A DNA stretch of 64,000 nucleotides from Burkholderiales bacterium (GCA_044870335.1 JBIOYV010000111.1:61943-125942); one strand, 5' to 3'. Shown: positions 24,319 through 54,224, counted from the stretch's first letter. Notes: generated by a model from the sequence alone, not told the origin. Program-made: numbers and translations.

Positions 24319-24489
24319 GACTTTCTTTCTTGCCCTGCGGCTCTCGTTTCGTTGTAACGATCCGGCCGCGCTTATCGTTGACGCTTGAAGATACCAGATC
24401 GCATCCGGCCGCAGCGCGGGAATCGTTGCAGGATGTGACCGTTTACCCAATATTGGACTGCAGTTTGGAGATTACCCACCGGAGGAGCG

Positions 24490-27327: not shown

Positions 27328-28926
27328 ATGCCGCGCCACCTCCGCACCGGAATCATCGCCTTCGCCGTTTTCGCCGCCTTTGCCGGCCCGCTGGCGGCCC
27401 AGGAGTCAGGAAGGATCAGCCGGGTCACGCTGTACCCGGGGAGCGCGACCGTCGAGCGTTCCGCCCGCGTCGCCGTGGGCACGAGCACGCTCAAGATGGC
27501 CGGCCTACCGGCCAACTTCGATGTGCGCACCCTGCGGGTGGAGGCCGACCCCGGTATCCAGGTCGGCGAGGTAGCGGTGCAGGACCTGGGTCGCGCCGAG
27601 GCGGTCAGCAGGCGGGAAGCTGACCTCGAGGCCAAGATTCAGGCGCTGAAGGATGAGAAGGCGGCGCTCGAGGTCGAAGTGAAGACGGCCGAGCTGGTGC
27701 GGGACTATCTCAAGGCCCTCAGCAAGCAGCCCGGCGTCGAAGGCGACAAGGCACACCCGATCGCCTTCGACCCGAAAACGATCCCGGCGGTCATCGAGGC
27801 TATCCGCCACGGCGGTGGCGACGCATACGGCCAGATCCAGCGCACCGAGATCAAGAAGCGAGCCCTCGACAAGCAGGTCGCCGCTCTCGAGCGCGATCTG
27901 GCCAGGGTGCGCACCGGCGCTCGCGACGCGCGCACGCTCACCGTCGGCTATTCGGCCTCGCGCGCCGGCGAGCTGCGTGCGGTCTATCAGGTAGGGGACG
28001 CGGGCTGGAAGCCCGTTTACCGAGCGGCACTCGATTCTTCGGCTTCGCGCGTCGAGCTCGAGCGCCAGGCCATGGTCATGCAGCGCACCGGCGAAGATTG
28101 GCGCGGCGTGACGCTGCGCCTCTCCACCGGCCAGCCGCGCCCGGCGCAAGTCCCGGATCCGTCCACTTGGCAGCTCGTGATCCGGCCTCCGGTCCTTGCG
28201 GATCATCTGTACCAGAATGGCGTATTCGCGCAGGCGCCCGCCGAGTCGCGCGTCCGCGCCGAGAAGTCGGTTGAGCGGCCGGCACCGGTCGTGACCACGT
28301 TCGAGACCCAGTACGCGACCGAATTCGCGGTGCCGGGACAGGTCGATCTCCCTGCCGACGGCCGCGAGGTGAACGTCTCGCTCGCGAAGCAATCGATCGC
28401 AGTCAAGCAGCGCATCCGGGTCATGCCGCGGCAAGACACCGCCGCGATGGTCACCGCCGAGGCCGAGCTTCCCGAAGGCGTGTGGATCCCCGGCAACGCG
28501 CAGCTCTACCGCGACGGCAGCTATATCGGCTCCACTTTCTGGAACGCGCAAGCGAAGGAAAAGCTCGTCCTTCCCTTCGGCCGCGACGACCGCGTGCAGG
28601 TCACGGTGAACCGGACCAAGAACCGCACCGGCGCGGCGGGCCTGCTGGGCGCGCGCTCCGAGCGCCAGATCGCCGACCTCTATACCGTCACGAGCCGCCA
28701 CAAGGTCCCGGTGGAGCTCCTCCTGCTGGAGCCGTCACCGGTGGCCGTGTCGGACCAGATCAACGTCGACGCCGCATTCGAACCCAAGCCAAAGGTCAAA
28801 GACTGGGAGGAGAAGCGCGGGGTAGTCGCCTGGGATCAGTCGCTCGCGCCCGGCGAGACGCTCAAGTTCGTCGCCGACTACACCATCCGCTATCCCAAGG
28901 AGTCCGTAGTAATCGGACTGCCCTAA
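27328..28926 (+). CDS. DUF4139-domain protein (mucoidy inhibitor MuiA family), secreted
   Basis: Signal peptide, central coiled-coil region, C-terminal DUF4139-like beta-rich domain. Confidence 0.75.
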   Translation: MPRHLRTGIIAFAVFAAFAGPLAAQESGRISRVTLYPGSATVERSARVAVGTSTLKMAGLPANFDVRTLRVEADPGIQVGEVAVQDLGRAEAVSRREADLEAKIQALKDEKAALEVEVKTAELVRDYLKALSKQPGVEGDKAHPIAFDPKTIPAVIEAIRHGGGDAYGQIQRTEIKKRALDKQVAALERDLARVRTGARDARTLTVGYSASRAGELRAVYQVGDAGWKPVYRAALDSSASRVELERQAMVMQRTGEDWRGVTLRLSTGQPRPAQVPDPSTWQLVIRPPVLADHLYQNGVFAQAPAESRVRAEKSVERPAPVVTTFETQYATEFAVPGQVDLPADGREVNVSLAKQSIAVKQRIRVMPRQDTAAMVTAEAELPEGVWIPGNAQLYRDGSYIGSTFWNAQAKEKLVLPFGRDDRVQVTVNRTKNRTGAAGLLGARSERQIADLYTVTSRHKVPVELLLLEPSPVAVSDQINVDAAFEPKPKVKDWEEKRGVVAWDQSLAPGETLKFVADYTIRYPKESVVIGLP

Positions 28927-29151
28927 AGATGCGCTCATTTTTTCGAGCGAGGAGGTCGCTGTGGCATTAGTTGGCGCGTGAAGGTCTAGCACTTCGCCGC
29001 AGCGTTCATTGACGATTCCTGAAAGAAAAATCACCCCGATCGCGTGAAGTAAGGCGCGCGGCTCGCTGTTATCCACAGCCAACGTGAACTCTCCCCTGCG
29101 TACCCCCGATCACTGCCAGTAGTGTAGTTGGCAAGAAAGGGGGGTAGATAT

Positions 29152-30240
29152 ATGAAACGCTTTGTTCGCAACACAGTCGCGGCAGCAGGGTTCGTCGCCG
29201 CAACGCTGTCCAGCAACGTCGCGCTCGCGGTGGAGGAGCTCGAAGGCACGGCGGGCAATGGTTCGATCGCCACCGCGCAGCCTCTGAGTGGTGACGTGTT
29301 CGTCGCCGGCAGCGTGATGGTGAACGGCGCCATCGGCTCCACGGCTTACTCGGTGCCGGCGGTGCCGGATGTCGACTTCTATTCCTTCGCGGCGACCGCG
29401 GGCGACATGCTGACCATCGATATCAACGGCGGCATCAAGGTAGACGGACCGTTGAACCCGATCCGCAGCGTGGATACGGTCATCGCCCTGTTCATGGCAG
29501 ACGGCACGATGCTCTACCTCAACGACGACGCCGACGATGTCGACCTCGGCTCCCTTGCGACGAACGACTCGCGCATCGTCAACGCGGTCCTGCCGGCGAC
29601 CGGCACCTACTTCGTCGGAGTGGCAGGCACCGGGATGCAGAGCATGCACCTGTTCTCGGATGGCGGAGTGCTGAGCGGCGCCTCGACCGCGGACCCGAAC
29701 ACCGGTAACGGCAGCTACACGCTGACCATCGCCGGGGTGACGACGCCGCCGGCCGATACGCCGCCGGCCGAGACGCCGCCGGCCGATACGCCGCCGGCCG
29801 AGCCGCCCGTGGTGACGACGCCGCCGCCGGTGGCGGGCGGAGCCCAGCAGATCAACATCGACATCCGGCCGCGCCAACAGGGCGTGACGAAGATCTGGGC
29901 GAATACCGACGGCAAGATCGTGGTCGCGCTGCTCTCCTCGAGCTCGTTCAACGCGCTCAAGGTCGATCGCACCACGATCACCTTCGGTGCGGAAGGCAAC
30001 GAAGCGAGCCTGATCCGCTGCCACAGCGAGGGCATCCACGTGAACCGCGATCGCCGCAAGGACCTGGTCTGCCTCTTCGACCTCAAGAAGGCCAGCTTCG
30101 ACGTCGGCGACGTCGAGGGCGTAGTCAAGGGCACGGTGGAAGGCAAGGTGTTCGAAGGCCACGCGCCGTTGAAGGTCTACCAGCGCGGCAAGAAGGAGAA
30201 GCATCGCCACGACTGGGACCGCCACGCCGGTCGGCGGTAA
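29152..30240 (+). CDS. secreted protein with a pre-peptidase-C-terminal-like domain and a Thr/Pro-rich tandem repeat linker
   Basis: ATG at 29152 after an AAGGGGGG RBS. Signal peptide present. DVDFYSF motif. Linker (TPPAD/TPPAE) x4. Confidence 0.7.
   Translation: MKRFVRNTVAAAGFVAATLSSNVALAVEELEGTAGNGSIATAQPLSGDVFVAGSVMVNGAIGSTAYSVPAVPDVDFYSFAATAGDMLTIDINGGIKVDGPLNPIRSVDTVIALFMADGTMLYLNDDADDVDLGSLATNDSRIVNAVLPATGTYFVGVAGTGMQSMHLFSDGGVLSGASTADPNTGNGSYTLTIAGVTTPPADTPPAETPPADTPPAEPPVVTTPPPVAGGAQQINIDIRPRQQGVTKIWANTDGKIVVALLSSSSFNALKVDRTTITFGAEGNEASLIRCHSEGIHVNRDRRKDLVCLFDLKKASFDVGDVEGVVKGTVEGKVFEGHAPLKVYQRGKKEKHRHDWDRHAGRR
29746..29805. repeat. 15-nt tandem repeat x4 (acgccgccggccgaK) encoding TPPAD/TPPAE
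   Basis: Read directly in the sequence inside CDS 29152..30240. Confidence 0.85.
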
Positions 30241-30286
30241 AGCAGGCGAGCGGCGACGCTAGTCGCCGCGCCTAGGCAGGAAATGT

Positions 30287-30336
30287 CGGGGGTCCTGGTC
30301 GCGAGACCATGGACCCCCGGTCATTTTTGGCAAACC
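30287..30336 (+). terminator. rho-independent terminator
   Basis: 9-bp stem cgggggtcc/ggacccccg with a 15-nt loop, followed by gtcatttttgg. Lies 47 nt after the stop of CDS 29152..30240. Confidence 0.6.
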
Positions 30337-30433
30337 GGAGGCTTGCGCCCGCACATCGACTGCATCACTGCGTGCGCGGCGCGCAAGGTCTATCCTGACC
30401 GGATCTTGCGCTCCGTACGCGGAGAGTGCGCGG

Positions 30434-32038
30434 ATGTTGGATTTTCTGAAGAAGGGCGACGACGGTCATCTCGACGCGTCGATGCGCACTCCGGCGTCGG
30501 CGGCGAAGCTGCTCGCCGGGATGCGCGAAGCCGATCCGGCCGCGGCGCTGGAAGAGCTCGCCGGCTGGCTCGAGAAAGGCCTGCCGAGCCACGACGCGAA
30601 ACTCCGCAGCCAGGTCCTGTCGCAGATCCACGAATCGGGCAGCGGGCATGTAGGCGCGCTTCTCGCTCGGTTTCTCGGCAAGCCGCCGGGAAGCGGCAGC
30701 AAGCCGGATCCATCGACCTGGGAAACGCTCAGCCGTTATCTCATGCTGCTGGCGCACGCGCTCTACACGTCGGCCAGGACGCCGCTGAAGGACCCCGACA
30801 GCAGCCAATCGCTCCGGCTCGTCGGCGCGGCAGACGCGGCGAGGTGCATTCATACCTGCCGAACGCTGGCAAAGGCCTGCCTCATGCGCTATCTCAGCGT
30901 TCCTGCGAAGCTCTGGCGCATGGCCTATGCCGTCCATGACAAGGCGCAGAAAGTCGGGTGCGCCGCGACGCCGGTCCACCTGCAGGGCGCGGGCCAGCCG
31001 GCGACGACCGTGACCCAGGAGCTGCTGCAGCTTTTGATGCTGCATTCGTGCGCGCCGGAAATGATGGCGCCGCGGCAGATCGAAGTGGCCGATCGCGTGA
31101 CCGAGCAGCTTGGCCAGGACTTCACGCTGCGCCCGCGCGGCGTTGCCGACATGCCGTTCTGCTTCGATCCGTCGAGCGACCTGCCGCCGCACCGGTCGAA
31201 CGGCCAGCCTTCCGGCGCGGACAGCCCCATGCGGTTCTTTGGCGCCGGCGCCGGCTTCAGCGCACTGGAGCGGCTCCACAAGGAGCTCGCGACGGCCAAG
31301 GTCGAGGACATCAAGGCGTTCGGCAAGGACATCGATCCTTACACCCAGATCTCGGCCACGCGGCATCTGCTGGCGTTCTGGGGTCCGACGTGCCCGTACA
31401 CGCCCCCGGCGCGCTCGCCGGCGTCGGGCGAGCTGAGCGTGATCCACGGCCATGCGCGGGTGTGGCAGGCCCTGTGGAGTACCCGGTCCACCAGCACCGA
31501 GCTGACCCTGGTGGAAGACGGCGCCTCCGGGCCGGAGGCGCCGGACACCTGGGCGCTGCACGACACTGGCGGCAACGAGCTGGGCGCCGAAATTCCGAAC
31601 GCTTCGAGGGAGCGGGCACGCTGCGGCAACGTGGTCGGCGTCTCGATGAACGGCAGCGACGACTATTGGGTGGGCGTGATCCGCTCGGTGCACGCCAGGC
31701 GCGACGGCTGCCTGCACGCCACGATCGCGATCCTGAGCCGCGCTCCCCACGCCGTGGAGCTGCGCACGCTCTATGCGCACGGCGAGGAGAGCGGCTATTC
31801 GGCGGAAGCCGCGCGCGAATTTGCCTTCAATCGGGCCTGCGCGATCGTTCTTGCGGACGGTTCGGCGGAGTCGCAGACGCCGAACCTGCTGCTGCCCGCG
31901 GAAGGCTGGAAGGAAGGCCGCGTCTACGAAGTGGCCGTGAACGGATCGACGCGCCAACTGCGCGGCGCCCAGCTCCTGCGCCGCGGCGACGACTACGTGC
32001 GCGTCACCTTCGAGTGGCTGGCCGGCGCAACGCCTTGA
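30434..32038 (+). CDS. hypothetical protein, possibly with a PilZ-like C-terminal domain
   Basis: 534 aa with no confident family match. The C-terminal region (RRDG...NGSDDYWVGV...VRVTFEWL) weakly resembles c-di-GMP-binding PilZ folds. Confidence 0.55.
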   Translation: MLDFLKKGDDGHLDASMRTPASAAKLLAGMREADPAAALEELAGWLEKGLPSHDAKLRSQVLSQIHESGSGHVGALLARFLGKPPGSGSKPDPSTWETLSRYLMLLAHALYTSARTPLKDPDSSQSLRLVGAADAARCIHTCRTLAKACLMRYLSVPAKLWRMAYAVHDKAQKVGCAATPVHLQGAGQPATTVTQELLQLLMLHSCAPEMMAPRQIEVADRVTEQLGQDFTLRPRGVADMPFCFDPSSDLPPHRSNGQPSGADSPMRFFGAGAGFSALERLHKELATAKVEDIKAFGKDIDPYTQISATRHLLAFWGPTCPYTPPARSPASGELSVIHGHARVWQALWSTRSTSTELTLVEDGASGPEAPDTWALHDTGGNELGAEIPNASRERARCGNVVGVSMNGSDDYWVGVIRSVHARRDGCLHATIAILSRAPHAVELRTLYAHGEESGYSAEAAREFAFNRACAIVLADGSAESQTPNLLLPAEGWKEGRVYEVAVNGSTRQLRGAQLLRRGDDYVRVTFEWLAGATP

Positions 32039-32744
32039 AGAGCGCCGGTTCCCAGTAGCGCACGGCGAGCATCACGCTGAGCGGGTAGCGCTGCTCGAGC
32101 GGCAGGCGCGAGTCGGCACGGTGCTGGTCGTCGTATTCGCGCGCCACCTGCTCGAGGCGCCGCAGCAGCGCCATGCGGGCTTCGCCCGAGACCCGGACCG
32201 TGACCATGCGCATGAACTCGCCTGGACCCTCGAACGCGTGATTGAAGAAGTCCGGCGCCTGCGAGCGCGCGTAGCGCATGATCGGCCCGTCCGGGTTCCA
32301 GGCGAAGGTGCGCGCGAGGCGCAGCCGGATGCGGTTGTTCTCGTGCACCTCGACGATGCCGATGCGCTCGAGCTTCAGCAGCAGCTTGACGCACTGCGCC
32401 TCGTCCAGATCGTAGAGGTGGACGATCTCGTCCACGCGCATCTGCTGGATCGCGCAGATGGCGACCAGGAGCAGCGCCGGTTCGGCCATCAGCTCCTGCT
32501 CCTGCTGCGGCGTGAGCCGGCTGATGAGCTTGTCGTCGCGCGGGGCGCCGCGCGCCAACTCGGCGAGGTCCACCTGGAGCAGGTCGCAGATCGAGTCGAG
32601 CCGCTCGAGCGTGCAACTCTTGGTCGCGAAGATGCGCTTGACGGTGGCCTCCGAGATCTTGAGCGCGCGTGCGACCTCGGCGTAAGTCATGCCGCGCGCC
32701 TTGAGGTGCATCCGGAGGCCATCGAATACGAACGCAGAGGACAC
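32004..32744 (-). CDS. XRE-family (Cro/C1 HTH) transcriptional regulator with a C-terminal domain of unknown function
   Basis: HTH LKARGMTYAEVARALKISEATVKRIF. GTG start at 32744 lies 6 nt after GAAAGG. Convergent with the upstream gene and overlaps it by 35 nt. Confidence 0.75.
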   Translation of the reverse strand: MSSAFVFDGLRMHLKARGMTYAEVARALKISEATVKRIFATKSCTLERLDSICDLLQVDLAELARGAPRDDKLISRLTPQQEQELMAEPALLLVAICAIQQMRVDEIVHLYDLDEAQCVKLLLKLERIGIVEVHENNRIRLRLARTFAWNPDGPIMRYARSQAPDFFNHAFEGPGEFMRMVTVRVSGEARMALLRRLEQVAREYDDQHRADSRLPLEQRYPLSVMLAVRYWEPALFKALRRPATRR

Positions 32745-32855
32745 GGCGGGCCTTTCGGGCGAGAAAGTTTCACCGGATGATACTTTAGAGTCGATATTCT
32801 TGAACCGCGTCGCATCATATTGAACGCGACTAGGGGGTCGGCATACTGCCCGCCC

Positions 32856-35387
32856 ATGAGCCGTGCACTCCCCTACCTCTGGTACCCGCTCATCTTTGCG
32901 GCGGCGATCGCCGGCTTCGCCGCCATGCTTTCGGCCGGGTTACCGCTTGCCGCCGCGACCTATGCGCCGGTCGCCGCCGCGGCGCTGGCGGTCGTGGTGC
33001 TCGAGCTCGCCTTTCCCGAGCGCCTCGATTGGCGTCCGCGGCGCGCGGACGTCGCCGCCGATGCGGCCTTCATGGCGTTCGTGCAGATCCTGCTGCCGCG
33101 GGTGCTGGCCGCGTCTGTGGTTCTCGGGCTCGCCGCCTGGGCGCACGAGCGTGCGCCCAGCCCTTGGTGGCCGCACGACTGGCCGCTCGGCGGGCAGATG
33201 GTGCTCATGGTTTTGGCGGTGGACTTCCTGCGCTATTGGCTGCACCGGGCCTGCCATGCCTATCTGCCGCTCTGGCGCCTGCACCAGGTCCACCACTCGC
33301 CGGACATCCTCTATGCGCTCAACGTCGGGCGCTTCCATCCGCTCGAGAAGGCGCTGCATTTCGCCTGCGACAGCGCGCCGTTCCTGCTGCTCGGCGTGGC
33401 GCCCGAGGTGGTCGCGGGCTATTTCCTCCTCTACGCAGTGAACGGTTTCTTCCAGCACAGCAATGTGCGCCTGCGCTACGGCTGGCTCAACTACGTGGTC
33501 GGCAGCGCGCAGACGCATCGCTGGCACCATGCCCGCGATCCGCGCCTGGCGCACTGCAACTTCGGCAGCAGTACTCTCCTCTGGGATCTCGCCTTCGGCA
33601 CCTGGCAGCTGCCGCAAGACGCGCCGGTAGACGACATCGGCATCATGGACCGCGCCTATCCCAGGGGCTTCTGGGCGCAGATGGGAGCACCGTTCCGCGC
33701 CGCAGCGCCGCGGTACGGCATCGCCCGGCGCATCGCGGATCTCGTCATCCCCGCGTACCTGCGGCTGGCGAGCATCGTGCATTCCTGGCGGCTCGGCCGC
33801 GCGGCGCGCAACCCGATGCGCGTCCAGAGGGCGCTGCTCGAGCGGATCCTGCGCGATAACCGCGCCACTTCGTTCGGACGCCAGCACGGCTTTGCGCGTG
33901 TTCGCGACTATGCCGGCTACGTGGGCGCGGTGCCGGTGATGGATTTCGAGGCGCTGCGTCCGTATATCGAGGCCGAGATCGAGCGCGGGGAGCAAGCCCT
34001 GACCGCCGAGGCGCCGCGGCAATACCTGCGCACCAGCGGCTCGACCGGAAAGCCGAAGGACATTCCACTCACTGCGACGCACCTGCGCGCGCTGCGCGCC
34101 ATCCAGCGCACCTCCGTCGCGTTCCAGCACCGCGTCTGCCCGGAAGCGTTCCGCGGCAGCATCCTCGCCATCGTGAGCCCGGCGGAGGAGGGCAGGCTCG
34201 CGAACGGCAAGCCCTACGGCGCCGCCTCCGGCATCGTCGCCGCCGGCACACCCGCGCTGGTACGCGAGAAGTTCGTGCTGCCCGCGGACGCGCTGGCGGT
34301 TGCCGACGCGCGCGTGAAGTACCTGCTCATCCTGCGCCTGTCGCTGGCGCGGCGCGATATCACCTATTTCGGCTCGGCGAACTCGACCACGCCGCTCGCA
34401 CTGATGAAGCTCTATCGCGAGTACCACGCTGAGCTGATCGCGGACGTGCGCAACGGCGGGTTCTTCTGCGCCGGCAAGCTTGCGGCCGGCACGCGTGCGG
34501 CGCTGCGCCGACGCCTCGAGCCGGACCCGGCGCGCGCCGACGAGCTGGCGGCGCTGCACGCCGGGGGTGCCGTGCCGCGAATGGCCGAGCTGTGGCCCGA
34601 GCTGCGCATGGTCGTGACCTGGACCTGCGGCAGCGCGGGCGTGAGCGTCGCCGCGCTGCGGCGCGAGCTCGCGCAGCGCACGCGCGTCTTCGAGCTCGGG
34701 TACGTGGCGAGCGAGTTCCGCGGCACGCTGACGCTCGGCAGCCAGGCCGGCACCGGCCTGCCGACCTTCGATACGCATTTCTTCGAGTTCGTCGAGCGTG
34801 CGAAATGGGACCGCGGCGAGCCCGAGTACGTAACGCTCGGCGAGCTGCGCAAGGGCGTCGACTACTACGTGATCGTCACGACGGCGGCGGGCCTGTACCG
34901 CTATTTCATCAACGATCTCGTCCAGGTCACCGGCTTCCTGCACGCGACGCCGCTTTTCAGATTCATGCAGAAGGGAAAGGGCGTGACCAATATCACCGGC
35001 GAGAAGCTCTACGAGTCGCAGCTGCTTCAGGCGGTCCGCGCCGCGATGGGGAAGCTCGGCCTCGATGCGCGCTTCGTGATGATGCTCGCCGACGAGGCGG
35101 CCTGCGCCTATCGCCTCTACGTCGAGCCCGACCGCGTCCCGGCGGTCGCGGCGGCGCGCCTCGCTGGCGAGGTCGATGCGCGGCTGCGCAAGCTCAACGT
35201 CGAATACGAAGGCAAGCGCGACAGCGAGCGGCTCGCTGCGCCCAGCGCCGCGTGGTTGCGTCCCGATACCGGTGAGGCATACAAGCGCCATTGCGTGGCC
35301 CGCGGACAGCGCGAGGGGCAGTTCAAGTGCCCCGTGCTTGCCTATCGCCGGTCCTTCGGCTTCGACCTGGAAGCCTACGTGCAATGA
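32856..35387 (+). CDS. fusion protein: N-terminal fatty-acid hydroxylase / sterol desaturase family membrane domain plus C-terminal GH3 (acyl-acid amido synthetase) family domain
   Basis: His-box motifs HRACH, HQVHHSP and HRWHH in the N-terminal TM domain. GH3-like motifs in the C-terminal ~560 aa (SGSTGKPK, YASSE-like, GLYRY). A single continuous frame of 843 aa. Confidence 0.8.
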   Translation: MSRALPYLWYPLIFAAAIAGFAAMLSAGLPLAAATYAPVAAAALAVVVLELAFPERLDWRPRRADVAADAAFMAFVQILLPRVLAASVVLGLAAWAHERAPSPWWPHDWPLGGQMVLMVLAVDFLRYWLHRACHAYLPLWRLHQVHHSPDILYALNVGRFHPLEKALHFACDSAPFLLLGVAPEVVAGYFLLYAVNGFFQHSNVRLRYGWLNYVVGSAQTHRWHHARDPRLAHCNFGSSTLLWDLAFGTWQLPQDAPVDDIGIMDRAYPRGFWAQMGAPFRAAAPRYGIARRIADLVIPAYLRLASIVHSWRLGRAARNPMRVQRALLERILRDNRATSFGRQHGFARVRDYAGYVGAVPVMDFEALRPYIEAEIERGEQALTAEAPRQYLRTSGSTGKPKDIPLTATHLRALRAIQRTSVAFQHRVCPEAFRGSILAIVSPAEEGRLANGKPYGAASGIVAAGTPALVREKFVLPADALAVADARVKYLLILRLSLARRDITYFGSANSTTPLALMKLYREYHAELIADVRNGGFFCAGKLAAGTRAALRRRLEPDPARADELAALHAGGAVPRMAELWPELRMVVTWTCGSAGVSVAALRRELAQRTRVFELGYVASEFRGTLTLGSQAGTGLPTFDTHFFEFVERAKWDRGEPEYVTLGELRKGVDYYVIVTTAAGLYRYFINDLVQVTGFLHATPLFRFMQKGKGVTNITGEKLYESQLLQAVRAAMGKLGLDARFVMMLADEAACAYRLYVEPDRVPAVAAARLAGEVDARLRKLNVEYEGKRDSERLAAPSAAWLRPDTGEAYKRHCVARGQREGQFKCPVLAYRRSFGFDLEAYVQ

Positions 35388-36484
35388 AGCTCGAATCGCT
35401 CCAGGCAAGCGCGCTCGCCATTTCCTTCCGGCACTCGTTCAGGCATGCGTCGGCCGAGCGTTCTGCCACGCAGGCGATCTGGGTCGCGGCACGCGCGTGC
35501 GGCGCCGCAGGCTACGGCGAGGGTTGTCCGCGCGAGTACGTCACCGCCGAGAGCGTGCGGAGCGCGCAAGTCTTCGTGGCTGCGCATCTGCACGAATGGA
35601 GCGGCGAGCTGCTCGACGCGCCGTGGTTGCGTGGCTGGACGGCGAAGCGCGAACGCGAGATCGACGCTCATCCCGCGGCGTGGACGGCGGTGGAGCTCGC
35701 TATGCTGGACCTGCTGGGGAAGACCGGGTCCAGGCCGGTGGAGGCGCTGCTCGGACTGCCCGCCCTGGCGGGTCGCTTCCAATATACGGCGGTGCTCGGC
35801 GACGCGCCGCCTGCCGCCTTCGAGGCGCAGCTTGCGCGCTACCGCGGCGCCGGTTTCCGTGATTTCAAGATCAAGCTCTCCGGCGAGCCGGCACGCGACG
35901 CGGCGAAGGTGAGCGTGCTGCGAGCCGCGGGCATCGCGCCCGAGCGCGTGCGCGCCGACGCCAACAATCTGTGGCCGGACGCGGGCGCCGCGATCGCAGC
36001 TCTCGAGGCGCTCGATTATCCCTTCGCCGCGCTCGAAGAGCCGCTGCGCGCCGGCGACCACGAAGGCATGGCGCGCGTCGGCCGGGCGCTCGGGAGCGCC
36101 ATCATCCTCGACGAAAGCGTGGCGCGCGCGAGCCAGCTCGAAACGTTGCCGGCGCATGGCAGCTGGATCGTCAATTTGCGGATCTCGAAAATGGGCGGTG
36201 TCCTGCGATCGCTGGAGTTCCTGAACGAGGCGCGCCGACTCGGTGTGCCAGTCGTCATCGGTGCGCACGTCGGCGAGACCAGCGTGCTGACACGCGCCGC
36301 GCTTACCGTGGCGAGCGTTGCGGGCGACGTTCTGATCGCGCAGGAAGGCGCGTTCGGCACCCACCTCCTCGAGCGCGACGTGGCCGAGGCGCCGCTCATG
36401 TTCGGCGCCGGTGGCGCGCTGGAAGTCGCGCCGGCGATGGCGGCAGCGCCGGGCTGGGGCCTCGCGATCCGTGAGCCCACGTAG
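35384..36484 (+). CDS. enolase-superfamily enzyme (mandelate racemase/muconate lactonising / dipeptide epimerase-like)
   Basis: Barrel-domain motifs (KIKLSG..., DANN, LEEP, DES, KMGG). ATGA overlap with the fusion gene. Confidence 0.85.
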   Translation: MKLESLQASALAISFRHSFRHASAERSATQAIWVAARACGAAGYGEGCPREYVTAESVRSAQVFVAAHLHEWSGELLDAPWLRGWTAKREREIDAHPAAWTAVELAMLDLLGKTGSRPVEALLGLPALAGRFQYTAVLGDAPPAAFEAQLARYRGAGFRDFKIKLSGEPARDAAKVSVLRAAGIAPERVRADANNLWPDAGAAIAALEALDYPFAALEEPLRAGDHEGMARVGRALGSAIILDESVARASQLETLPAHGSWIVNLRISKMGGVLRSLEFLNEARRLGVPVVIGAHVGETSVLTRAALTVASVAGDVLIAQEGAFGTHLLERDVAEAPLMFGAGGALEVAPAMAAAPGWGLAIREPT

Positions 36485-38195
36485 CCTCTTCGCCTGGCTG
36501 CTCGCCGCCGTGCTTGCGGTCGCCAGCGCAGGGTGCACCACCGTAGTCGGCCAGTTTTTCCTGCCGAAAGAGGGCGTGCGGGAAGCGGGCTACGCGGTCG
36601 AGCGGCAAAAGGGCGTCGCCTTCGATACTTCCGACGGCATCGCGCTGGTGGCCGATCTTTATCGACCCAGAACGCAGGAGAAGAGGCCGACGATCCTGGT
36701 GCGAATTCCATTTTCCAGCACCTTCAAGAACCGCCTCGCGGTCGATACCGTCGGCGAGTTCTGGGCGAGTCGCGGCTACAACGTGGTGATCCAGGGAACT
36801 CGCGGGCGCTACAAATCGGGCGGTGAGTTCTATCCGCTGCTCTACGAAGAGGCTGACGGGCGCGAAACGCTGCAATGGCTCGCGCGCCAGCCCTGGTTCG
36901 ACGGCCGCCTGGGGATGTGGGGCGGCTCGGCGTTCGGTCATACCCAGTGGGTGCTGGCGGGTGACGAGGCCCCCGGACCGGGCGTGCTCATGATCCAGAT
37001 CGCCAGCACCAGCTTTCGCGAGATGTTCCATCCGGGAGGCGCGTTCTCGCTCGAGTCCGCGCTGTTCTGGGCGGCGCGCAGCCACGGACGCGAAGACCGC
37101 GATCCCTCGTTCGACGCGCTCGAGCGCGGGTTCGCCGGGTTTCCATTGATCGAGGCCGACGACCGCGCCGTCGGCGACGTCGCCTTCTTCAACGACTGGG
37201 CGCGTCACGTCGACGCGGACGATTACTGGCGTCGCATCGACGGGACCGATCGTGCCGGCACGCTCAGGGCGCCAGTGCTCCTCATGGCGGGCTGGTATGA
37301 CCCGTTCCTGCCGACGCAGCTGCGCGACTTCGAAACCGTGCGGCGCGAAGCGGCGCCCGGCGTCGCGGCGGGCAGCCGGCTCATCGTCGGACCCTGGACG
37401 CACGCCGACCCGGTGCGGTTTCCCGACGGCTCGACCGCGGGCGACTACCGGCCAGCGAGCCTCGCGCCGAGCCTGCCGTGGTTCGACCATCATCTGCTCG
37501 GCAAGCCGCTCGCCCCATCGCTTGCCGCGCCGGTGCGCATCTACGTCATGGGCGAAAACCAATGGCGCGACGAGCGGGAATGGCCGCTCGCCCGCGCACG
37601 TTACGTACCCTATTACCTGGGAAGGGGTGGCCGCCTAGCGCAAAGCCCGCCGGGCGATGAGCCACCGGACTCCTACGTATGCGATCCGCGGCAGCCGGTA
37701 CCCTCGCGCGGCGGCGCCATGCTCGGTCCGCGCGCCGGCATAGCATTGCAAAACGACATCGAGGCACGCACCGACGTGCTCCTCTACACCACCGCGGCCC
37801 TCGAGCAGGACACCGAAGTCACTGGGCCGATCCGGGCGCTGCTCTACGTGTCCACCACGGCGCCAAATACGGATTTCACCGTCAAGCTGGTGGACGTCCA
37901 CCCGGACGGCAAGGCGTACAACATCTCCGACGGCATCCTGCGGCGCGCGTATCCCGAGCAGGCGCGCGAAACCCCGCAGGAAATCGTCGTCGAGCTCTGG
38001 CCGACCAGCATGCTCTTCCGGCGCGGCCATCGCGTGCGCGTCGAGGTCTCGAGCAGCAACTATCCGCGCTACGACCGCAATCCGAACACCGGCCGCGACA
38101 TCGCCACCGAAACCGAGCCGCGGCCGGCGACGCAGACCGTGTTCCACAGCGCCGTGGCGCCGTCGCGCATCATCCTGCCGCTGGTCCCGCGCTAG
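36471..38195 (+). CDS. CocE/NonD-family (S15 X-Pro dipeptidyl-peptidase-like) hydrolase, lipoprotein
   Basis: Lipobox LAVASAGC. GxSxG-like motif GGSAFG. C-terminal beta-sandwich. GTG start at 36471 assumed; an ATG at 36411 is an alternative. Confidence 0.75.
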   Translation: MSPRSLFAWLLAAVLAVASAGCTTVVGQFFLPKEGVREAGYAVERQKGVAFDTSDGIALVADLYRPRTQEKRPTILVRIPFSSTFKNRLAVDTVGEFWASRGYNVVIQGTRGRYKSGGEFYPLLYEEADGRETLQWLARQPWFDGRLGMWGGSAFGHTQWVLAGDEAPGPGVLMIQIASTSFREMFHPGGAFSLESALFWAARSHGREDRDPSFDALERGFAGFPLIEADDRAVGDVAFFNDWARHVDADDYWRRIDGTDRAGTLRAPVLLMAGWYDPFLPTQLRDFETVRREAAPGVAAGSRLIVGPWTHADPVRFPDGSTAGDYRPASLAPSLPWFDHHLLGKPLAPSLAAPVRIYVMGENQWRDEREWPLARARYVPYYLGRGGRLAQSPPGDEPPDSYVCDPRQPVPSRGGAMLGPRAGIALQNDIEARTDVLLYTTAALEQDTEVTGPIRALLYVSTTAPNTDFTVKLVDVHPDGKAYNISDGILRRAYPEQARETPQEIVVELWPTSMLFRRGHRVRVEVSSSNYPRYDRNPNTGRDIATETEPRPATQTVFHSAVAPSRIILPLVPR

Positions 38196-38207: not shown

Positions 38208-39311
38208 CTACCGCAGCGCGCTGTAGACCTCGGCGAGCGAGCGCTTCCCGCCTTGTCCGGCGGCAAGTGCGAGCGACGCCCGGGCCAGCTTCTCCGCATC
38301 GCCCGCCGCGATCTCGGCCGCCAGGGCCTGCGCTTCCGCGCTGGTCAGCGAGCGCACATGGATTCGGGCGAAGCAGCGTCCCGGGCGGATCAGCGCGTCG
38401 TCCAGGTCGCCGACGTTCGGCAGGTTGGTCGAGAAGATGATCTTGCGTCCCTGCGCGCGCACCACGCCGTCGGCGATGGCGAGAAAGCGGTGCAGATGCT
38501 GGTTGCCGTCGGCGCGCGGCTTGAGCAGGTGGTCCGCGTCCTCGACGATGAACGCTTCATCCTCGCCGGTGATGAATTTGACGAAGATCTGGTCGCTGGA
38601 GAGTGCCCTCATGTCGCCGGTGTACATGGCGCGTGCTTCCTCGCCCTTGCGCCGCGACATCTCGCCGAGGATGGCGCGGATCAGCCGCGTCTTGCCGGTG
38701 CCCGGCGGCCCCTGCAGCACGAGCACGGTTTCCGGCGCGGCCAGGTAGCGCGCGATAAAGGGTTTCACGCCTTCCCTGATCTCGGGATAGGCGCGGTCGC
38801 GCAGGTCGTCGTCGGCCATCTCCTCGATCGACGCGCTCTCCAGGTCGTTACCCGAGAGAAAGTGCCAGTCGATCGAGAACATCGGCTCGGTGATGCGGGT
38901 CGAGCCGGCCTTGTCGAGCAGCCGCTGCTTTGCGGCCTCGGCGCGCGCCAGGTCGGCCGCCCAGATGTAGAAGGAGCAGGAGCAGTAATCGGCCTTGCGG
39001 CTGCCGTACGCGGCGACGAACAGCCCATCGCCGTCGAGGAGCATCGCCTCGGCGTGGATGCGCTCTGCGCGCCAAGCCGGGTCGAGCGCGATCGCGTCGA
39101 GCAGCACCTCGAGCTCGACGCGCGCTGCGAAGCGCAGCACACGGTAAGCGGGGTAGCGCGAGACGCCGTCCTCGAGGGCACGGGCCATGCGGTTCTCCAG
39201 CACCAGGGCGCCCAGGTAGTTGACGTGCCGCGTCAGCCCGCTGAACTGCTTGTATTGGTCGTTTTTCATGTCTCTCACAAAAAAACGGCCGACCCAAGGG
39301 CCAGCCGTCAA
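38208..39311 (-). CDS. AAA+ family ATPase with a ~190-aa N-terminal domain of unknown function
   Basis: Walker A GPPGTGKT, Walker B FIVEDAD, sensor/arginine finger region. TTG start overlaps the SPFH gene stop (TTGA). Confidence 0.8.
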   Translation of the reverse strand: MTAGPWVGRFFVRDMKNDQYKQFSGLTRHVNYLGALVLENRMARALEDGVSRYPAYRVLRFAARVELEVLLDAIALDPAWRAERIHAEAMLLDGDGLFVAAYGSRKADYCSCSFYIWAADLARAEAAKQRLLDKAGSTRITEPMFSIDWHFLSGNDLESASIEEMADDDLRDRAYPEIREGVKPFIARYLAAPETVLVLQGPPGTGKTRLIRAILGEMSRRKGEEARAMYTGDMRALSSDQIFVKFITGEDEAFIVEDADHLLKPRADGNQHLHRFLAIADGVVRAQGRKIIFSTNLPNVGDLDDALIRPGRCFARIHVRSLTSAEAQALAAEIAAGDAEKLARASLALAAGQGGKRSLAEVYSALR

Positions 39312-40453
39312 CGGATCTTCACCAGATCCTTCAGCACCGCGTCGAGGCCACCGAACACCGAGATCTTGTCGATCTTCTCGGTAACCTTCTCCAGAGTCTC
39401 CAGCTCCTTCAGCCGCAGCGCGGTCGGGTTGTCTTCCATCACCCGGGCGGTGTTCAGCAGCGAACGGGTAGCCGAGGTTTCCTCACGGCGGCGGATCACG
39501 TTCGCCAGCGCGGCCTTCTCGGCCTCCACCACCTTCGCCAGGATCACCTTCATCTCACCCGGCAGGATGATGTCCTTCACGCCGACCGAGTCGACTTCCA
39601 GGCCGAAGCCCTCCACGCGGCGCTTGATGTGCTCCGCCACCACCTGGTCGATCAGCCCCTTGTTCTCGAGCAGCTCGTCCAGGGTACGGGTACCCACCGC
39701 GGCACGCAGGCCGAACTGGAGCTCCTTGTACAGGTAGTCCGCCGGCTTCGCCTGCTTGCCGAACGCCACCAGCACGTCGGTCACACGGTAGCCCGCGTTC
39801 AGGTTCACGCGCAGCGGGACCTTGTCCTTGGTCAGGATTTCCTGACCCGCCACTTCCAGAACCTGCAGGCGCAGATCCACGAACTCGACGCGCATGTCGC
39901 GGCCGAAGCGGTAGAAGGCGCGCAGGCCGGCATCCAACACGTATGCCAGCTTGCCGTCGACGTATACGACGCCCACGTTGAACTGCGGCACCTGCACGCC
40001 GTACACGTCTTCAGCGCCGGGCACCTTCGCCTTGAAGCCGTTCGCAGTCAGAGTGATCAGCTGCGGTACCAGCTTCGGGTCGACGGTGAAGTCGGTCGCG
40101 ATGTCGACGCGCTCGAACTCCTGTTCGAGGTAGCCCTTGAAGTACAGGCGGCGGGTGTTCGGCGCCAGCATCTCGGCGAGCACGCCGTTCTCGACGCGCA
40201 GGCCGACCTCGGCCGTGCCGAGCTCGACCACGTGGAACTCGCGCGCCACGGCTTCCGGCTCCGCCTTCACCAGGAACTCGGCCAGGCGGTGCTCGAAGCG
40301 CGGCTGTGCCAGACCGAACTTCTCGACGGTCAGGCGGTGCAGCGGGTCGAAGCGAACGTGCTCGCCCGGACGCAGGATCTCGACGAAGTCGCCGCGCTCG
40401 AACAGCAGCGCGCGCTCATCCTTCTTCACATGAAACTTCCGAAACAGCATCAT
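39308..40453 (-). CDS. SPFH/band-7 (slipin-type) protein
   Basis: SPFH domain followed by a C-terminal coiled coil. RBS AAGGAG lies 7 nt before ATGATG at 40453. Confidence 0.85.
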   Translation of the reverse strand: MMLFRKFHVKKDERALLFERGDFVEILRPGEHVRFDPLHRLTVEKFGLAQPRFEHRLAEFLVKAEPEAVAREFHVVELGTAEVGLRVENGVLAEMLAPNTRRLYFKGYLEQEFERVDIATDFTVDPKLVPQLITLTANGFKAKVPGAEDVYGVQVPQFNVGVVYVDGKLAYVLDAGLRAFYRFGRDMRVEFVDLRLQVLEVAGQEILTKDKVPLRVNLNAGYRVTDVLVAFGKQAKPADYLYKELQFGLRAAVGTRTLDELLENKGLIDQVVAEHIKRRVEGFGLEVDSVGVKDIILPGEMKVILAKVVEAEKAALANVIRRREETSATRSLLNTARVMEDNPTALRLKELETLEKVTEKIDKISVFGGLDAVLKDLVKIR

Positions 40454-40714
40454 TTGTTTTCTCCTTTGTTTCTCCCTTAAAGAAACCACTTCTTAAAAAA
40501 ATCGGGAATCCGGCCTCCCGGGCGCCCGACGGGCTCCGCCGCGCACGCGGGGGAAAGCAGCGGTGCACCTCACAGAGATCCTTCCTGTGAATGCAGCGTT
40601 GCCTCGCCCGCAGGCGCCGCACGGCGCACTCGGCCTGGAACCCGGTGCGTGAGCGCGATGCTCTGCGCACACGCTGAAGCCGGCCCCGTACTGCGTTACT
40701 GCAGCCAACGTTAC

Positions 40715-40788
40715 AAGTTGGAGCGGGATTCGAACCCGCGACAGATCGGTTTTCAGCCGATTGCTCTACCCGTCTGAGCTATCCAGAT
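40715..40788 (-). tRNA. tRNA-Phe(GAA)-like. Two acceptor-stem mismatches, no encoded CCA. Possibly a pseudogene.
   Basis: D-arm GCTCAGACGGGTAGAGC, anticodon arm ATCGG-CTGAAAA-CCGAT and T-arm GCGGGTTCGAATCCCGC read by hand. Its first nucleotide is shared with the CCA end of the adjacent tRNA-Met. Confidence 0.5.
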
Positions 40789-40862
40789 GGTGGCGAGAGT
40801 GAGAGTCGAACTCACGACCTCCGCCTTATGAGAGCGTTGCTCTACCGCTGAGCTATCTCGCC
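40788..40862 (-). tRNA. tRNA-Met(CAT)
   Basis: Acceptor GGCGAGA/TCTCGCC, anticodon loop CTCATAA, T-loop TTCGACT, A73 then CCA. Confidence 0.7.
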
Positions 40863-41311
40863 CAACATTCGTCGCTCCCACGCCGCGGTACACGCCACGC
40901 CGATGTTCCAGGCAGGCGCGCCAGGGAGGACTCACGAGCCTCGCCCGCTGCGAACGCGTTCACGAAGAATTCTTGCTACGGATGTGGCAAAGCTTTGGGG
41001 GGACCTGCCGGAGTCGCACCGGCACTTGCGGATTCACATTCCGCTGTGCTGCTGTTACACCAAGATCTCCATCGAATCGGTGATGGCGCGCCTGACAGGA
41101 CTCGAACCTGAACCGACGGATTACCCGGGCATTACTCCGGGCCGCGCTGCGCTTGGAAACGCGCTTCCCTTCAGAACCGTCATCGGACCCTGTCGGTGCA
41201 TCCGCAACCATGCCCGCTCACGCGTTTGCAAATCCGCCTCCGCTCTTAACGGCACCCTTCGTCACTCGTTTTGGGTGTGCACTTTCCCTGTTGTGCGACA
41301 GGCGCTTGCTC

Positions 41312-41387
41312 TGGCTGTCCAGGCAGGCTTCGAACCTGCAGCCCGCGCCTTAACAGGGCGCCGCTCTACCGGTTGAGCTACTGGACA
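41312..41387 (-). tRNA. tRNA-Asn(GTT)
   Basis: Full cloverleaf: TGTCCAG-TA-GCTC-AACCGGTA-GAGC-G-GCGCC-CTGTTAA-GGCGC-GGGCT-GCAGG-TTCGAAG-CCTGC-CTGGACA-G-CCA (76 nt). Confidence 0.85.
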
Positions 41388-41394
41388 AAAGGAC

Positions 41395-41470
41395 TGGTAC
41401 CGGCCCGTGGTCTCGAACCACGCACCTCCCGCTTATCGAGCGGGTGCTCTTCCGGATGAGCTAGACCAGT
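41395..41470 (-). tRNA. tRNA-Ile(GAT)-like (unusual C33)
   Basis: Acceptor ACTGGTC/GGCCGGT with two G-U pairs. Anticodon loop TCGATAA. T-arm CGTGG-TTCGAGA-CCACG. CCA encoded. Confidence 0.6.
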
Positions 41471-41473
41471 GTC

Positions 41474-41548
41474 TGGCGGGGGCGCCTGGATTCGAACCAG
41501 GGACATCCGGCGTCAGAGGCCGGCGTTCTGCCGCTGAACTACGCCCCG
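41474..41548 (-). tRNA. tRNA-Gln(CTG)
   Basis: Anticodon arm CCGGC-CTCTGAC-GCCGG. T-arm CCTGG-TTCGAAT-CCAGG. C1-C72 mismatch. CCA encoded. Confidence 0.7.
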
Positions 41549-41550
41549 GC

Positions 41551-41626
41551 TGGCGCTTCCCCTCCGTTTCGAGCGGAGCTCTCCGGATCTTCAAACCGGC
41601 GCTGTCACCAGACCAGCTAGAGAAGC
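41551..41626 (-). tRNA. tRNA-Phe(GAA)-like with a non-canonical T-loop (CTCGAAA)
   Basis: Acceptor GCTTCTC/GGGAAGC. Anticodon loop TTGAAGA with a 31-39 mismatch. T-arm CTCCG-CTCGAAA-CGGAG (C54). Confidence 0.55.
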
Positions 41627-41632
41627 GTGAAT

Positions 41633-41708
41633 TGGTACTCGGTGATGGGGTCGAGCCATCGTCCTCCCGCTTGTGAGGTGGGCGCTCTTCGCACTGAGCT
41701 AACCGAGC
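41633..41708 (-). tRNA. tRNA-Val(CAC)-like with a non-canonical T-loop (CTCGACC)
   Basis: Acceptor GCTCGGT/ACCGAGT. Anticodon loop CTCACAA. T-arm GATGG-CTCGACC-CCATC. Confidence 0.6.
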
Positions 41709-41711
41709 ATT

Positions 41712-41787
41712 TGGTCGGCGCGGCAGGAGTTGAACCTGCAACCTTCTGATTAAGAGTCAGCTACTCTCGCCATTGAGTTACGCGCCG
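41712..41787 (-). tRNA. tRNA-Lys(CTT)
   Basis: Acceptor CGGCGCG/CGCGCCG. Anticodon loop CTCTTAA. T-arm GCAGG-TTCAACT-CCTGC. Confidence 0.7.
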
Positions 41788-41799
41788 TGTAGATAGTTT

Positions 41800-41875
41800 T
41801 GGCGGCACCGGCGGGACTTGAACCCGCGACCTCCTGCTCGACAAGCAGGCACTCTGTCTTCTGAGTTACGGCGCC
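41800..41875 (-). tRNA. tRNA-Asp(GTC)
   Basis: Acceptor GGCGCCG/CGGTGCC. Anticodon arm CCTGC-TTGTCGA-GCAGG. T-arm GCGGG-TTCAAGT-CCCGC. Confidence 0.8.
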
Positions 41876-41881
41876 ATTGAG

Positions 41882-41959
41882 TGGTACCTCCGGAAGGATT
41901 CGAACCCTCGGCCTCGCGGTTCGTAGCCGCGCGCTCTGGTTCCGCTGAGCTACGGAGGT
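41882..41959 (-). tRNA. tRNA-Arg(ACG)
   Basis: Acceptor ACCTCCG/CGGAGGT. Anticodon arm CGCGG-CTACGAA-CCGCG. T-arm GAGGG-TTCGAAT-CCTTC. Confidence 0.8.
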
Positions 41960-41964
41960 GTTGA

Positions 41965-42051
41965 TGGTTGAGCGGGAAGGATTTGAACCTTCACGGAACT
42001 GGCCGACCTCGGGGTTACGGCGCGGTGCCCTGCCTCATGGGCGTCCGCTCG
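41965..42051 (-). tRNA. type-II (long variable arm) tRNA-like gene, 87 nt. Anticodon arm not resolvable. Possibly a Tyr/Leu/Ser-type pseudogene.
   Basis: T-arm GAAGG-TTCAAAT-CCTTC resembles the E. coli tRNA-Tyr T-arm. Acceptor CGAGCGG/CCGCTCA with a C1-A72 mismatch. CCA encoded. No complementary anticodon stem found. Confidence 0.45.
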
Positions 42052-42057
42052 GTTGTA

Positions 42058-42134
42058 TGGTCTCGCCGGCAGGATTCGAACCTGCGGTCTCCTCGTCCCG
42101 AACGAGGCGCGCTGGCCGGCTGCGCTACAGCGAG
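42058..42134 (-). tRNA. tRNA-Pro(CGG)
   Basis: Anticodon arm CCTCG-TTCGGGA-CGAGG is identical to the E. coli tRNA-Pro(CGG) loop. T-arm GCAGG-TTCGAAT-CCTGC. Acceptor CTCGCTG/CGGCGAG. Confidence 0.85.
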
Positions 42135-42147
42135 GGAAGAAAATTGC

Positions 42148-42222
42148 TGGCATTCCCGGCCGGATTCGAACCGGCATCCACGGCTTGAAGGGCCGCGGTC
42201 CTGACCGTTAGACGACGGGAAC
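42148..42222 (-). tRNA. tRNA-Glu(TTC)
   Basis: GTTCCCG-TC-GTCTAACGGTCAGGAC...CCTTCAA...GCCGG-TTCGAAT-CCGGC-CGGGAAT-G-CCA. Closely parallels E. coli tRNA-Glu. Confidence 0.85.
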
Positions 42223-42361
42223 GTCGTAAATCGCGGGCGCAAGCCCGCCACCCCGCCGCGCGGCCCATGGGCCAACCGAGGGCACGTTGCGCGCGGCGGG
42301 GTCGTTTGCCACATCCAAGTTGTAAAAGAGCGGCGCGAGCTTTCGCTCACGCGAAAAAATC

Positions 42362-42438
42362 TGGTGCCCCACCCGGGATTCGAACCCGGAGCAGCGTGTT
42401 TCTGAGACACGCGCGTATGCCGATTCCGCCAGCGGGGC
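42362..42438 (-). tRNA. tRNA-Leu(CAG)-like lacking the long variable arm (77 nt). Atypical, possibly a pseudogene or non-canonical tRNA.
   Basis: Leu-type D-arm TG-GCG-GAATCGGCATA-CGC. Anticodon arm CGTGT-CTCAGAA-ACACG. Only a 5-nt variable region. T-arm CCGGG-TTCGAAT-CCCGG. Acceptor GCCCCGC/GTGGGGC. Confidence 0.6.
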
Positions 42439-48534: not shown

Positions 48535-48700
48535 GAAGACAATTCAGACCTTAGCAAGACCTTATTCCCTGGTAGCCACGCTGCCGTACGCGGCGACGAT
48601 CTTTCTGTCGTCGTTCCTGCTGTTCCTGGTCCAGCCGATCATCGCCAAGCAGATCCTGCCGTGGTTCGGCGGCTCGGCCGGGGTCTGGACTACCTGCCTC

Positions 48701-54215: not shown

Positions 54216-54224
54216 TCGTCGCGC

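Follow-up and report, generated by a model that had tools for sequence, protein, structure and literature searches.

This work concerns a gene cluster built around a fusion of a membrane hydroxylase with a GH3 acyl-acid amido synthetase, located in a 64,000-nucleotide stretch of DNA from a Burkholderiales bacterium (GCA_044870335.1, JBIOYV010000111.1:61943-125942); the whole stretch is called the window here, and its positions are counted from its first letter. The fusion is read as one open reading frame (ORF) of 843 amino acids (aa) on the plus strand, from an ATG at 32856 to a TGA ending at 35387, which bears out what an initial annotation made from the sequence by itself had placed there, and it is followed by genes for an enolase-superfamily enzyme and a CocE/NonD (S15) hydrolase (Table 1). 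What was observed directly is which domains are present, that their catalytic motifs are intact, that the genes are strictly linked and that alternative fusion patterns occur across phyla, and on balance we favor the interpretation that the operon makes and processes a modified lipoamino acid (an N-acyl amino acid) at the inner membrane.

The window has a G+C content of ~67%, and codon-position G+C resolves a clean series of genes around the cluster. The TGA of the fusion and the ATG of the enolase gene meet in the junction gtgcaATGAagc, a 4-nt ATGA overlap and an arrangement of translational coupling, as the initial annotation had reported and as can be read directly in the sequence, and the S15 gene starts with a GTG at 36471, overlapping the end of the enolase gene (36484) by 14 nt. 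A promoter and terminator scan found no terminator-like or promoter-like site between the three plus-strand genes, and one weak terminator-like match within the fusion ORF was at the level of shuffled background. The gene for the XRE-type regulator had been described as convergent with the cluster, which is wrong, as it is divergent from the fusion across a shared 111-bp gap (32745-32855) and convergent solely with an unrelated upstream plus-strand gene (30434-32038). The XRE protein is likely a local regulator of the operon. Within the 111-bp region the promoter and terminator scan and a repeat search found no sigma-70 consensus site and no significant repeat, and because no signal there rose above background, no operator can be proposed.

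Table 1. Features of the hydroxylase-GH3 cluster, with positions in the window
Feature	Position	Strand	Basis
XRE/Cro-C1-type HTH regulator, 246 aa	32004..32744	-	Pfam HTH_26 2.1e-12, HTH_31, HTH_3
Divergent intergenic region, 111 bp	32745..32855		Promoter/operator for regulator and operon presumed from position
Fusion N-terminal half, aa 1-290, OlsE-like integral-membrane di-iron His-box hydroxylase	32856..33725	+	Pfam, NCBIfam
Fusion C-terminal half, aa 293-843 plus stop, GH3 acyl-acid amido synthetase (adenylating)	33732..35387	+	Pfam, NCBIfam, PDB
Enolase-superfamily (MLE-subgroup) enzyme, 366 aa	35384..36484	+	Pfam MR_MLE_C 99.4 bits
CocE/NonD (S15) serine esterase/hydrolase, lipoprotein signal peptide, 574 aa	36471..38195	+	TIGR00976 394.6 bits

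Checking the domain boundaries with Pfam placed both expected domains, FA_hydroxylase (PF04116) and GH3 (PF03321), in the one ORF. The hydroxylase domain occupies aa 115-249 (1.9e-27, 96.7 bits against a cut-off of 31), and GH3 (aa 313-602, 9e-51, 173.3 bits), GH3_M (638-706, 70.6 bits) and GH3_C (722-829, 44.4 bits) all exceed the cut-off of 23.6 bits that applies to each of the three GH3 domain models (PF03321/PF23571/PF23572), so that the C-terminal half is a member of the GH3 family. Membership of the N-terminal half in the FA_hydroxylase superfamily is supported by its score, by the His boxes HRACH at 130, HQVHH at 143 and HRWHH at 221, of the patterns HxxxH, HxxHH and HxxHH, plus H201, and by hydrophobic segments at aa 7-30, 33-55 and 70-96. 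The GH3 part carries the nucleotide motifs TSGSTGKPK (393-401), YVASE (616-620) and YRYFIND (681-687), for which the family patterns are a P-loop-like S/T-S-G-T-x-G-x-x-K, Y-x-x-S-E and Y-R-x-x-x-D. Across 16 homologues of 62-83% identity the histidines H130, H134, H143, H146, H147, H201, H221, H224 and H225 were invariant, as were T393, S394, G395, T397, G398, K401, Y616, S619, E620, Y681, R682, Y683 and D687 of the GH3 motifs, and 110 of the 120 top homologues passed a regular expression combining GH3 motifs and His boxes. Standalone GH3 proteins align to the fusion from aa ~293-315 to its C-terminal end, and the best PDB match of this part is the plant enzyme JAR1 (5ech, 1.6e-22). An AlphaFold2 (AF2) model of the whole fusion from a 16-sequence alignment reached a predicted local distance difference test (pLDDT) of 66.6 and a predicted template modelling score (pTM) of 0.54, too weak to describe domain packing.

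Separate-gene versions of hydroxylase and GH3 are known in other lineages, and it could be supposed that an assembly or frameshift artefact had joined two neighboring genes here, but this explanation has a vanishingly small probability and is effectively refuted already. A search of 5.8 billion clustered proteins returned 685 homologues of the fusion at E<=1e-10, of which the top 120 are all ~845 aa long with both domain sets present, and hundreds of independent contigs hold the fusion uninterrupted at that length with a conserved junction. An identical protein, with its neighbors unchanged, is encoded both in a second NCBI assembly (GCA_044871145.1) and in a Logan assembly made independently. 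In an exhaustive HMMER search over 1.84 billion 50%-identity representatives, ~40 of the best 150 matches were full-length fusions, down to 32% identity, each the representative of a 50%-identity cluster; stand-alone GH3 proteins of ~550 aa and 37-46% identity were likewise found. Named carriers of the fusion are Burkholderiales, Betaproteobacteria or Casimicrobiaceae metagenome-assembled genomes (MAGs), plus a Bacteriovorax MAG. The search for the same fusion and synteny in other genomes, which the initial annotation had proposed as a check, thus found both the fusion and its gene order recurring widely.

Gene order was compared in 92 related loci (11 GTDB species representatives, 79 from metagenomes and 2 look-ups). 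An enolase-superfamily homologue lies directly downstream of the fusion in 74 of the 74 loci with enough sequence. Directly upstream, usually with a 4-nt overlap, 73 of 78 loci have a gene for a membrane protein of ~140 aa, a fifth component of the system that the initial annotation missed because the window is without it. This small membrane protein has no match in Pfam or NCBIfam; its motifs are RV.GQA.Q, FQGS.LPY and WF...FH.VL (examples are L011 7549-8001 and L002 7582-8001). It is absent also from the closest relatives of the window, where the XRE gene occupies its position (as in P0002 and P0004), and the sub-lineage of the window has lost it. An XRE homologue is found divergently upstream in 13 of 53 informative loci, and an S15 orthologue follows the enolase gene in 13 of 52, in each case about 25% of betaproteobacterial loci. 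The enolase gene is consequently an obligate partner of the fusion, with the S15 and XRE genes facultative in betaproteobacteria, and unbiased clustering of all neighboring ORFs in the related loci yielded no other widely recurrent neighbor.

Distant versions of the cluster divide the same functions differently among genes. On a 276-kb contig with planctomycete-type neighbors there are three overlapping genes, for a small membrane protein::hydroxylase fusion (453 aa), a GH3 protein (554 aa) and the enolase partner (370 aa), the arrangement of L096/L097. P0132 and P0256 each join the small membrane protein to the hydroxylase, and in P0132 the GH3 part belongs to the one protein as well. In P0122 the hydroxylase, GH3 and enolase partner form one 1207-aa protein, found on a single contig and hence to be taken with caution. 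The contig L102 (43% GC) keeps all five components as separate genes in unchanged order, from the small membrane protein through hydroxylase, GH3 and enolase partner to the S15 lipoprotein, the last four with identities of 44%, 43%, 49% and 63%, and a Bacteriovorax MAG retains the fusion-plus-enolase triad at 32% identity. The module is present in at least three distant bacterial lineages, and the system therefore consists of a conserved hydroxylase, GH3 and enolase core, usually with the small membrane protein, amid lineage-specific tailoring genes. That the S15 gene was a chance neighbor was first considered when it was found at 0 of the 11 GTDB loci, and this was reversed by the 13 of 52 loci and by L102; because it recurs in so distant a split cluster, the S15 gene belongs to the system, and the esterase is an old, recurrent member of the tailoring set. 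A gene for a carboxyl methyltransferase of the LCM family (PF04072) adjoins the fusion and its partner in the Bacteriovorax MAG and in two other distant lineages, and also occurs at one betaproteobacterial-type locus; the genes are adjacent in four loci (L098 11662-12531; L099 6107-6997, for L099/L100; L101 9489-10349; L062 9689-10561, minus strand), an adjacency that fits a product bearing a free carboxyl. L099 additionally has a P450 and a 2-oxoacid_dh-type acyltransferase-like gene, and all of these look like lineage-specific tailoring. Genes for envelope lipids also adjoin distant clusters: an apolipoprotein N-acyltransferase gene (Lnt, L102 1929-3446), which overlaps the small membrane-protein gene by 4 nt, and Glyco_transf_9 (heptosyltransferase-type) genes (L101 3389-5573, L103 501-1517).

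The closest characterized systems come from the biosynthesis of ornithine lipids. OlsH of Singulisphaera acidiphila (Sinac_1599), described in 2025, is the only characterized bacterial GH3 enzyme; it makes N-acyl-ornithine from a free fatty acid and ornithine with ATP and Mg2+, its operon partners are OlsI (an alpha/beta-hydrolase O-acyltransferase) and OlsG (an N-methyltransferase), and its authors proposed that bacterial GH3 homologues use other amino acids as well (PMC12493201). OlsE is a di-iron hydroxylase acting at C4 of the ornithine head group (PMC12971839). The NCBIfam model for OlsE (NF052566) aligns with aa 4-284 of the fusion over model positions 5-287 of 293 (5.5e-44, 150.6 bits), and that for OlsH (NF052613) matches the C-terminal part (1.3e-29, 103.1 bits). 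Like OlsH, the GH3 half is a bacterial adenylating enzyme with three nucleotide motifs, expected to form a fatty acid-amino acid amide with ATP and Mg2+, and it shares an operon with lipid-tailoring enzymes; unlike OlsH, it is fused to a hydroxylase, has an obligate enolase partner and has no OlsI or OlsG neighbors. The hydroxylase half resembles OlsE in full-length alignment, in being a membrane protein and in its set of His boxes, and differs in being fused to the enzyme presumed to make its substrate and, in most relatives, in being accompanied by a small membrane protein. The locus would thus work like OlsH plus OlsE while falling outside both equivalog families, and its partners are without precedent in aminolipid biosynthesis. 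Neither the OlsH paper (PMC12493201) nor a 2026 review (PMC12971839) mentions such a fusion or an enolase-superfamily partner, in keeping with the statement of the initial annotation that no characterized hydroxylase-GH3 fusion was known to it, and our literature search found no paper linking GH3, fatty acid hydroxylase, the enolase superfamily and lipoamino acids. Burkholderiales are not among the orders with OlsH homologues listed in that review (PMC12971839), nor does the OlsH paper name them as carriers.

An alternative explanation could be that the fusion is simply OlsH plus OlsE in one protein, producing an ordinary C4-hydroxylated (lyso-)ornithine lipid for membrane remodelling, with the enolase and S15 genes unrelated to it. 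Ornithine lipids are common in beta-proteobacteria (PMC12971839), and apart from a marginal acyl-CoA synthetase match the OlsE and OlsH models are the only curated NCBIfam matches of the fusion. Both scores are nevertheless far under the equivalog cut-offs, and this explanation would not account for an enolase gene that is present at every informative locus, usually translationally coupled, joined in frame to the fusion in P0122 and kept with the triad across three phylum-level contexts. There is also no linked O-acyltransferase: no OlsI-, OlsB- or OlsA-like gene was linked to the cluster among those window ORFs to which Pfam or NCBIfam was applied (24439-25371 encodes a DLH protein of YghX-like type). 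We regard an ordinary ornithine lipid as unlikely. Slightly less likely again is that the GH3 domain conjugates a non-lipid acid (auxin-, jasmonate-, benzoate- or isochorismate-like) to an amino acid, with soil bacteria modifying or mimicking plant hormones. The only solved relatives are hormone-conjugating plant enzymes (JAR1, GH3.5, GH3.6, GH3.8, GH3.12, GH3.15), with which the GH3 part shares fold and adenylation motifs, and many of the contigs are from metagenomes presumed, from their identifiers, to be of soil or rhizosphere. In contrast, the plant proteins are soluble, stand-alone phytohormone enzymes with a similarity of ~1e-22, the GH3 domain here is fused or adjacent to an integral-membrane di-iron hydroxylase of lipid type and to a small membrane protein, and the one characterized bacterial GH3 enzyme uses fatty acids.

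The enolase partner was assigned to the MLE subgroup by sequence, profile and fold searches in agreement. The nearest solved enzymes by profile are 2p88 (N-succinyl-Arg/Lys racemase of Bacillus cereus, 1.1e-40), 3jva (a dipeptide epimerase, 2.8e-40) and 1jpm (YkfB, 8e-35), at identities of ~22-24%, and an AF2 model with a pLDDT of 87.9 had 3jva, 2p88 and 1jpm as top Foldseek matches at template modelling (TM) scores of ~0.8. In sets of 32 and 38 sequences neither the KxK lysines (K162, K164) nor the metal ligands (D192, E218, D243) vary; these residues align to the same ones in 2p88, 3jva and 1jpm, and stand where strands of the AF2 model end. This is the layout of the MLE subgroup, in which KxK lies where beta2 ends and the Asp/Glu/Asp metal ligands come from beta3, beta4 and beta5. 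These features are shared with N-succinylamino acid racemase (NSAR) and dipeptide epimerases, enzymes that act on N-acylated amino acids in which the alpha-carboxylate is free, and the relationship supports a substrate of that kind for the partner too. The differences lie elsewhere in the active site. The motif N-I-K-L-M-K-x-G-G of epimerases and racemases reads N-L-R-I-S-K-M-G-G in the partner, such that the position of the Lys at the end of beta6 is R266 and the second-shell K/R position, three residues on, is K269. This signature, N264-x-R266-x-S268-K269-x-GG, is found in 119 of 120 homologues, and RxSK also at the distant loci L096, L098, L099, L101 and L102. Residues H21 and R26 of the 20s loop are invariant and the partner's own. 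The segment 'ADLDATFG' of 3jva, which we take to be the DxD motif after beta8, aligns to 'AQ-EGAFG' in the partner, where E321, G322, A323 and G325 do not vary. In dipeptide epimerases the DxD motif binds the free alpha-ammonium group of the substrate, and its loss argues against a dipeptide substrate. The beta6 Lys (K263 in NSAR numbering) is one of the two bases of 1,1-proton transfer in the racemising MLE-subgroup families (bioRxiv 10.1101/2022.03.03.481873), and no description of an Arg at this position was found in the literature. Simple racemisation by the partner is therefore doubtful; its reaction may be either an epimerisation or a one-base reaction such as beta-elimination, and as judged from superfamily chemistry it would begin with Mg2+-assisted enolisation of a carboxylate with an acylated alpha-nitrogen. 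An AEE-like protein lacking the family residues, BC0371, is known to act on an N-acyl amino acid (PMC2948282). The initial annotation had set the partner beside dipeptide and N-acyl-amino-acid epimerases; the protein is of MLE type and close to such enzymes, but it is not a canonical epimerase of either kind, given the invariant R266 and the absent DxD.

The S15 protein scored 394.6 bits against the CocE/NonD model TIGR00976, well above the cut-off of 66.3, and matched cocaine esterase (1ju3) and others over its full length at ~1e-93. As in CocE of Rhodococcus, the domain organization is kept, together with a catalytic triad of Ser (GGSAFG), Asp (GWYDPF) and His (GPWTH) and the oxyanion Tyr in DLYRP. 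Unlike CocE, the protein begins with MSPRSLFAWLLAAVLAVASAGC, a signal peptide with a lipobox cysteine (...AVASAGC), and it is linked to a lipoamino-acid operon. The lipobox Cys and the hydrophobic stretch before it are conserved in cluster-linked orthologues, being present in every one whose printed N-terminus reaches that far (~10 of 14), and the lipobox of L102 is LLISGC. The lipoprotein CocE/NonD hydrolase of the initial annotation is thereby upheld, and because of the intact triad and the lipoprotein signal peptide the enzyme is predicted to be an exported serine esterase or hydrolase acting in the envelope. These data bear also on the possibility of a peptide or murein-peptide recycling cassette, composed of an L-Ala-D/L-Glu-type epimerase and an X-Pro/S15 peptidase. 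The automatic name of the partner is 'L-Ala-D/L-Glu epimerase-like', its best structural matches include dipeptide epimerases, and the Pfam names for the last gene are Peptidase_S15 and PepX_C. However, the S15 protein is similar to cocaine esterase rather than to PepX, matching CocE/NonD models in NCBIfam and reaching just 25.9 bits with the Xaa-Pro model; the presumed DxD of 3jva and the beta6 Lys are both replaced in the partner; and the gene of the partner stays firmly linked to those of an ATP-dependent ligase and a membrane hydroxylase. Peptide recycling is for these reasons highly improbable.

We infer every chemical step of the proposed lipoamino-acid pathway. Homology to OlsH and to the GH3 enzymes of plants suggests that the cytoplasmic GH3 domain would adenylate a free fatty acid with ATP and Mg2+ and transfer the acyl group to the alpha-amino group that ornithine or another amino acid carries, giving an N-acyl amino acid. 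The four-helix di-iron N-terminal domain would, by homology to OlsE, tether the GH3 domain to the membrane and hydroxylate the nascent lipid with O2, either, like OlsE, at the head group or else at the acyl chain. The enolase partner may then bind the head group by its free alpha-carboxylate, through Mg2+, with a KxK lysine removing the C-alpha proton and an Arg, instead of a Lys, as second base; this might lead to an epimer or to the product of a one-base reaction, for example loss of the new hydroxyl by beta-elimination. Finally, where the CocE-like lipoprotein esterase is present, it could cleave an ester or amide of the product in the envelope after its export. The XRE protein would regulate the operon. 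Candidate routes by gamma-lactone formation of the acyl-homoserine lactone (AHL) type and by PAM-like amide formation were dropped, as no evidence supported them. The initial annotation had suggested a pathway making or turning over hydroxylated N-acyl amino acid or lipoamino acid signals, and this core idea survives through the likeness to OlsH and OlsE, with the corrections that the S15 and XRE genes are facultative, that the enolase is not a canonical epimerase and that a fifth component had been overlooked.

Several observations count against this lipoamino-acid interpretation. The score of the hydroxylase half misses the OlsE equivalog cut-off of 475 despite end-to-end alignment, and the GH3 half misses the OlsH cut-off of 620, such that ornithine cannot be assumed as the amino acid. 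The gene context is not that of an OlsHI-type operon, with no OlsI-like O-acyltransferase or OlsG adjacent in the window and none recurrent in the 92 loci, and a full acyloxyacyl aminolipid is accordingly not predicted. The canonical catalytic Lys of beta6 is replaced by R266 in all five PDB alignments, and with Arg there throughout the family the epimerase reading of the partner's step is weak. A tblastn search of the entire window did not find the small membrane protein, which is present in almost every relative, and the triple fusion of P0122 rests on a single contig.

A broader and distinctly more tentative proposal is that a pathway spread over several phyla leads to lipoamino acids of a chemically new class, namely a hydroxylated N-acyl amino acid with a D configuration or with dehydration between C-alpha and C-beta, and methyl-esterified in the lineages with an LCM gene, serving as an envelope lipid or extracellular signal. 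The partner could then be the first member of the enolase superfamily to have a dedicated role in lipid metabolism, with a non-canonical catalysis in which Arg takes the place of the beta6 Lys. GH3-dependent synthesis of bacterial aminolipids was discovered in 2025, and the present locus would represent a second, much larger and differently organized branch, strictly coupled to a new family of the enolase superfamily and abundant in metagenomes that appear to be soil-derived. For bacterial N-acyl amino acids, the biosynthesis of which is often unexplained, it offers a concrete route open to testing, and the Lys-to-Arg replacement is an unexplained catalytic variant in a textbook mechanistic superfamily. 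The comparison additionally flags systematic misannotation of these proteins as 'sterol desaturase', 'auxin-responsive GH3 promoter protein' and 'L-Ala-D/L-Glu epimerase'.

There were some further features in the window outside the cluster. Upstream, three plus-strand genes (27328-32038) that lie outside the cluster in other genomes code for a DUF4140/DUF4139 protein, a protein with a PPC domain, and one of 534 aa whose sole match is a precomputed one to FimW_N. On the minus strand at 38208-40489, two overlapping genes encode a 367-aa AAA ATPase and a 393-aa SPFH/Band-7 protein; they are convergent with the S15 gene, from whose end 12 bp separate them, and do not recur as a pair beside the cluster elsewhere. 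A 682-aa protein (48530-50578, plus strand) without a Pfam match at 1e-5 matches the NCBIfam subfamily 'fused MFS/spermidine synthase'. A 944-aa tri-domain protein (51396-54230, minus strand) combines a phosphopantetheine-binding (acyl carrier protein, ACP) domain, a fatty acyl-AMP ligase and a PlsC-type acyltransferase and is a second lipid-remodelling fusion of the window, for which no link to the cluster was seen. About 2.5 kb downstream of the cluster, 14 tRNA genes, including two for tRNA-Phe(GAA), are packed into ~1.7 kb on the minus strand (40715-42438); this array is responsible for a local dip in G+C and seems unusual for a betaproteobacterium-like genome.

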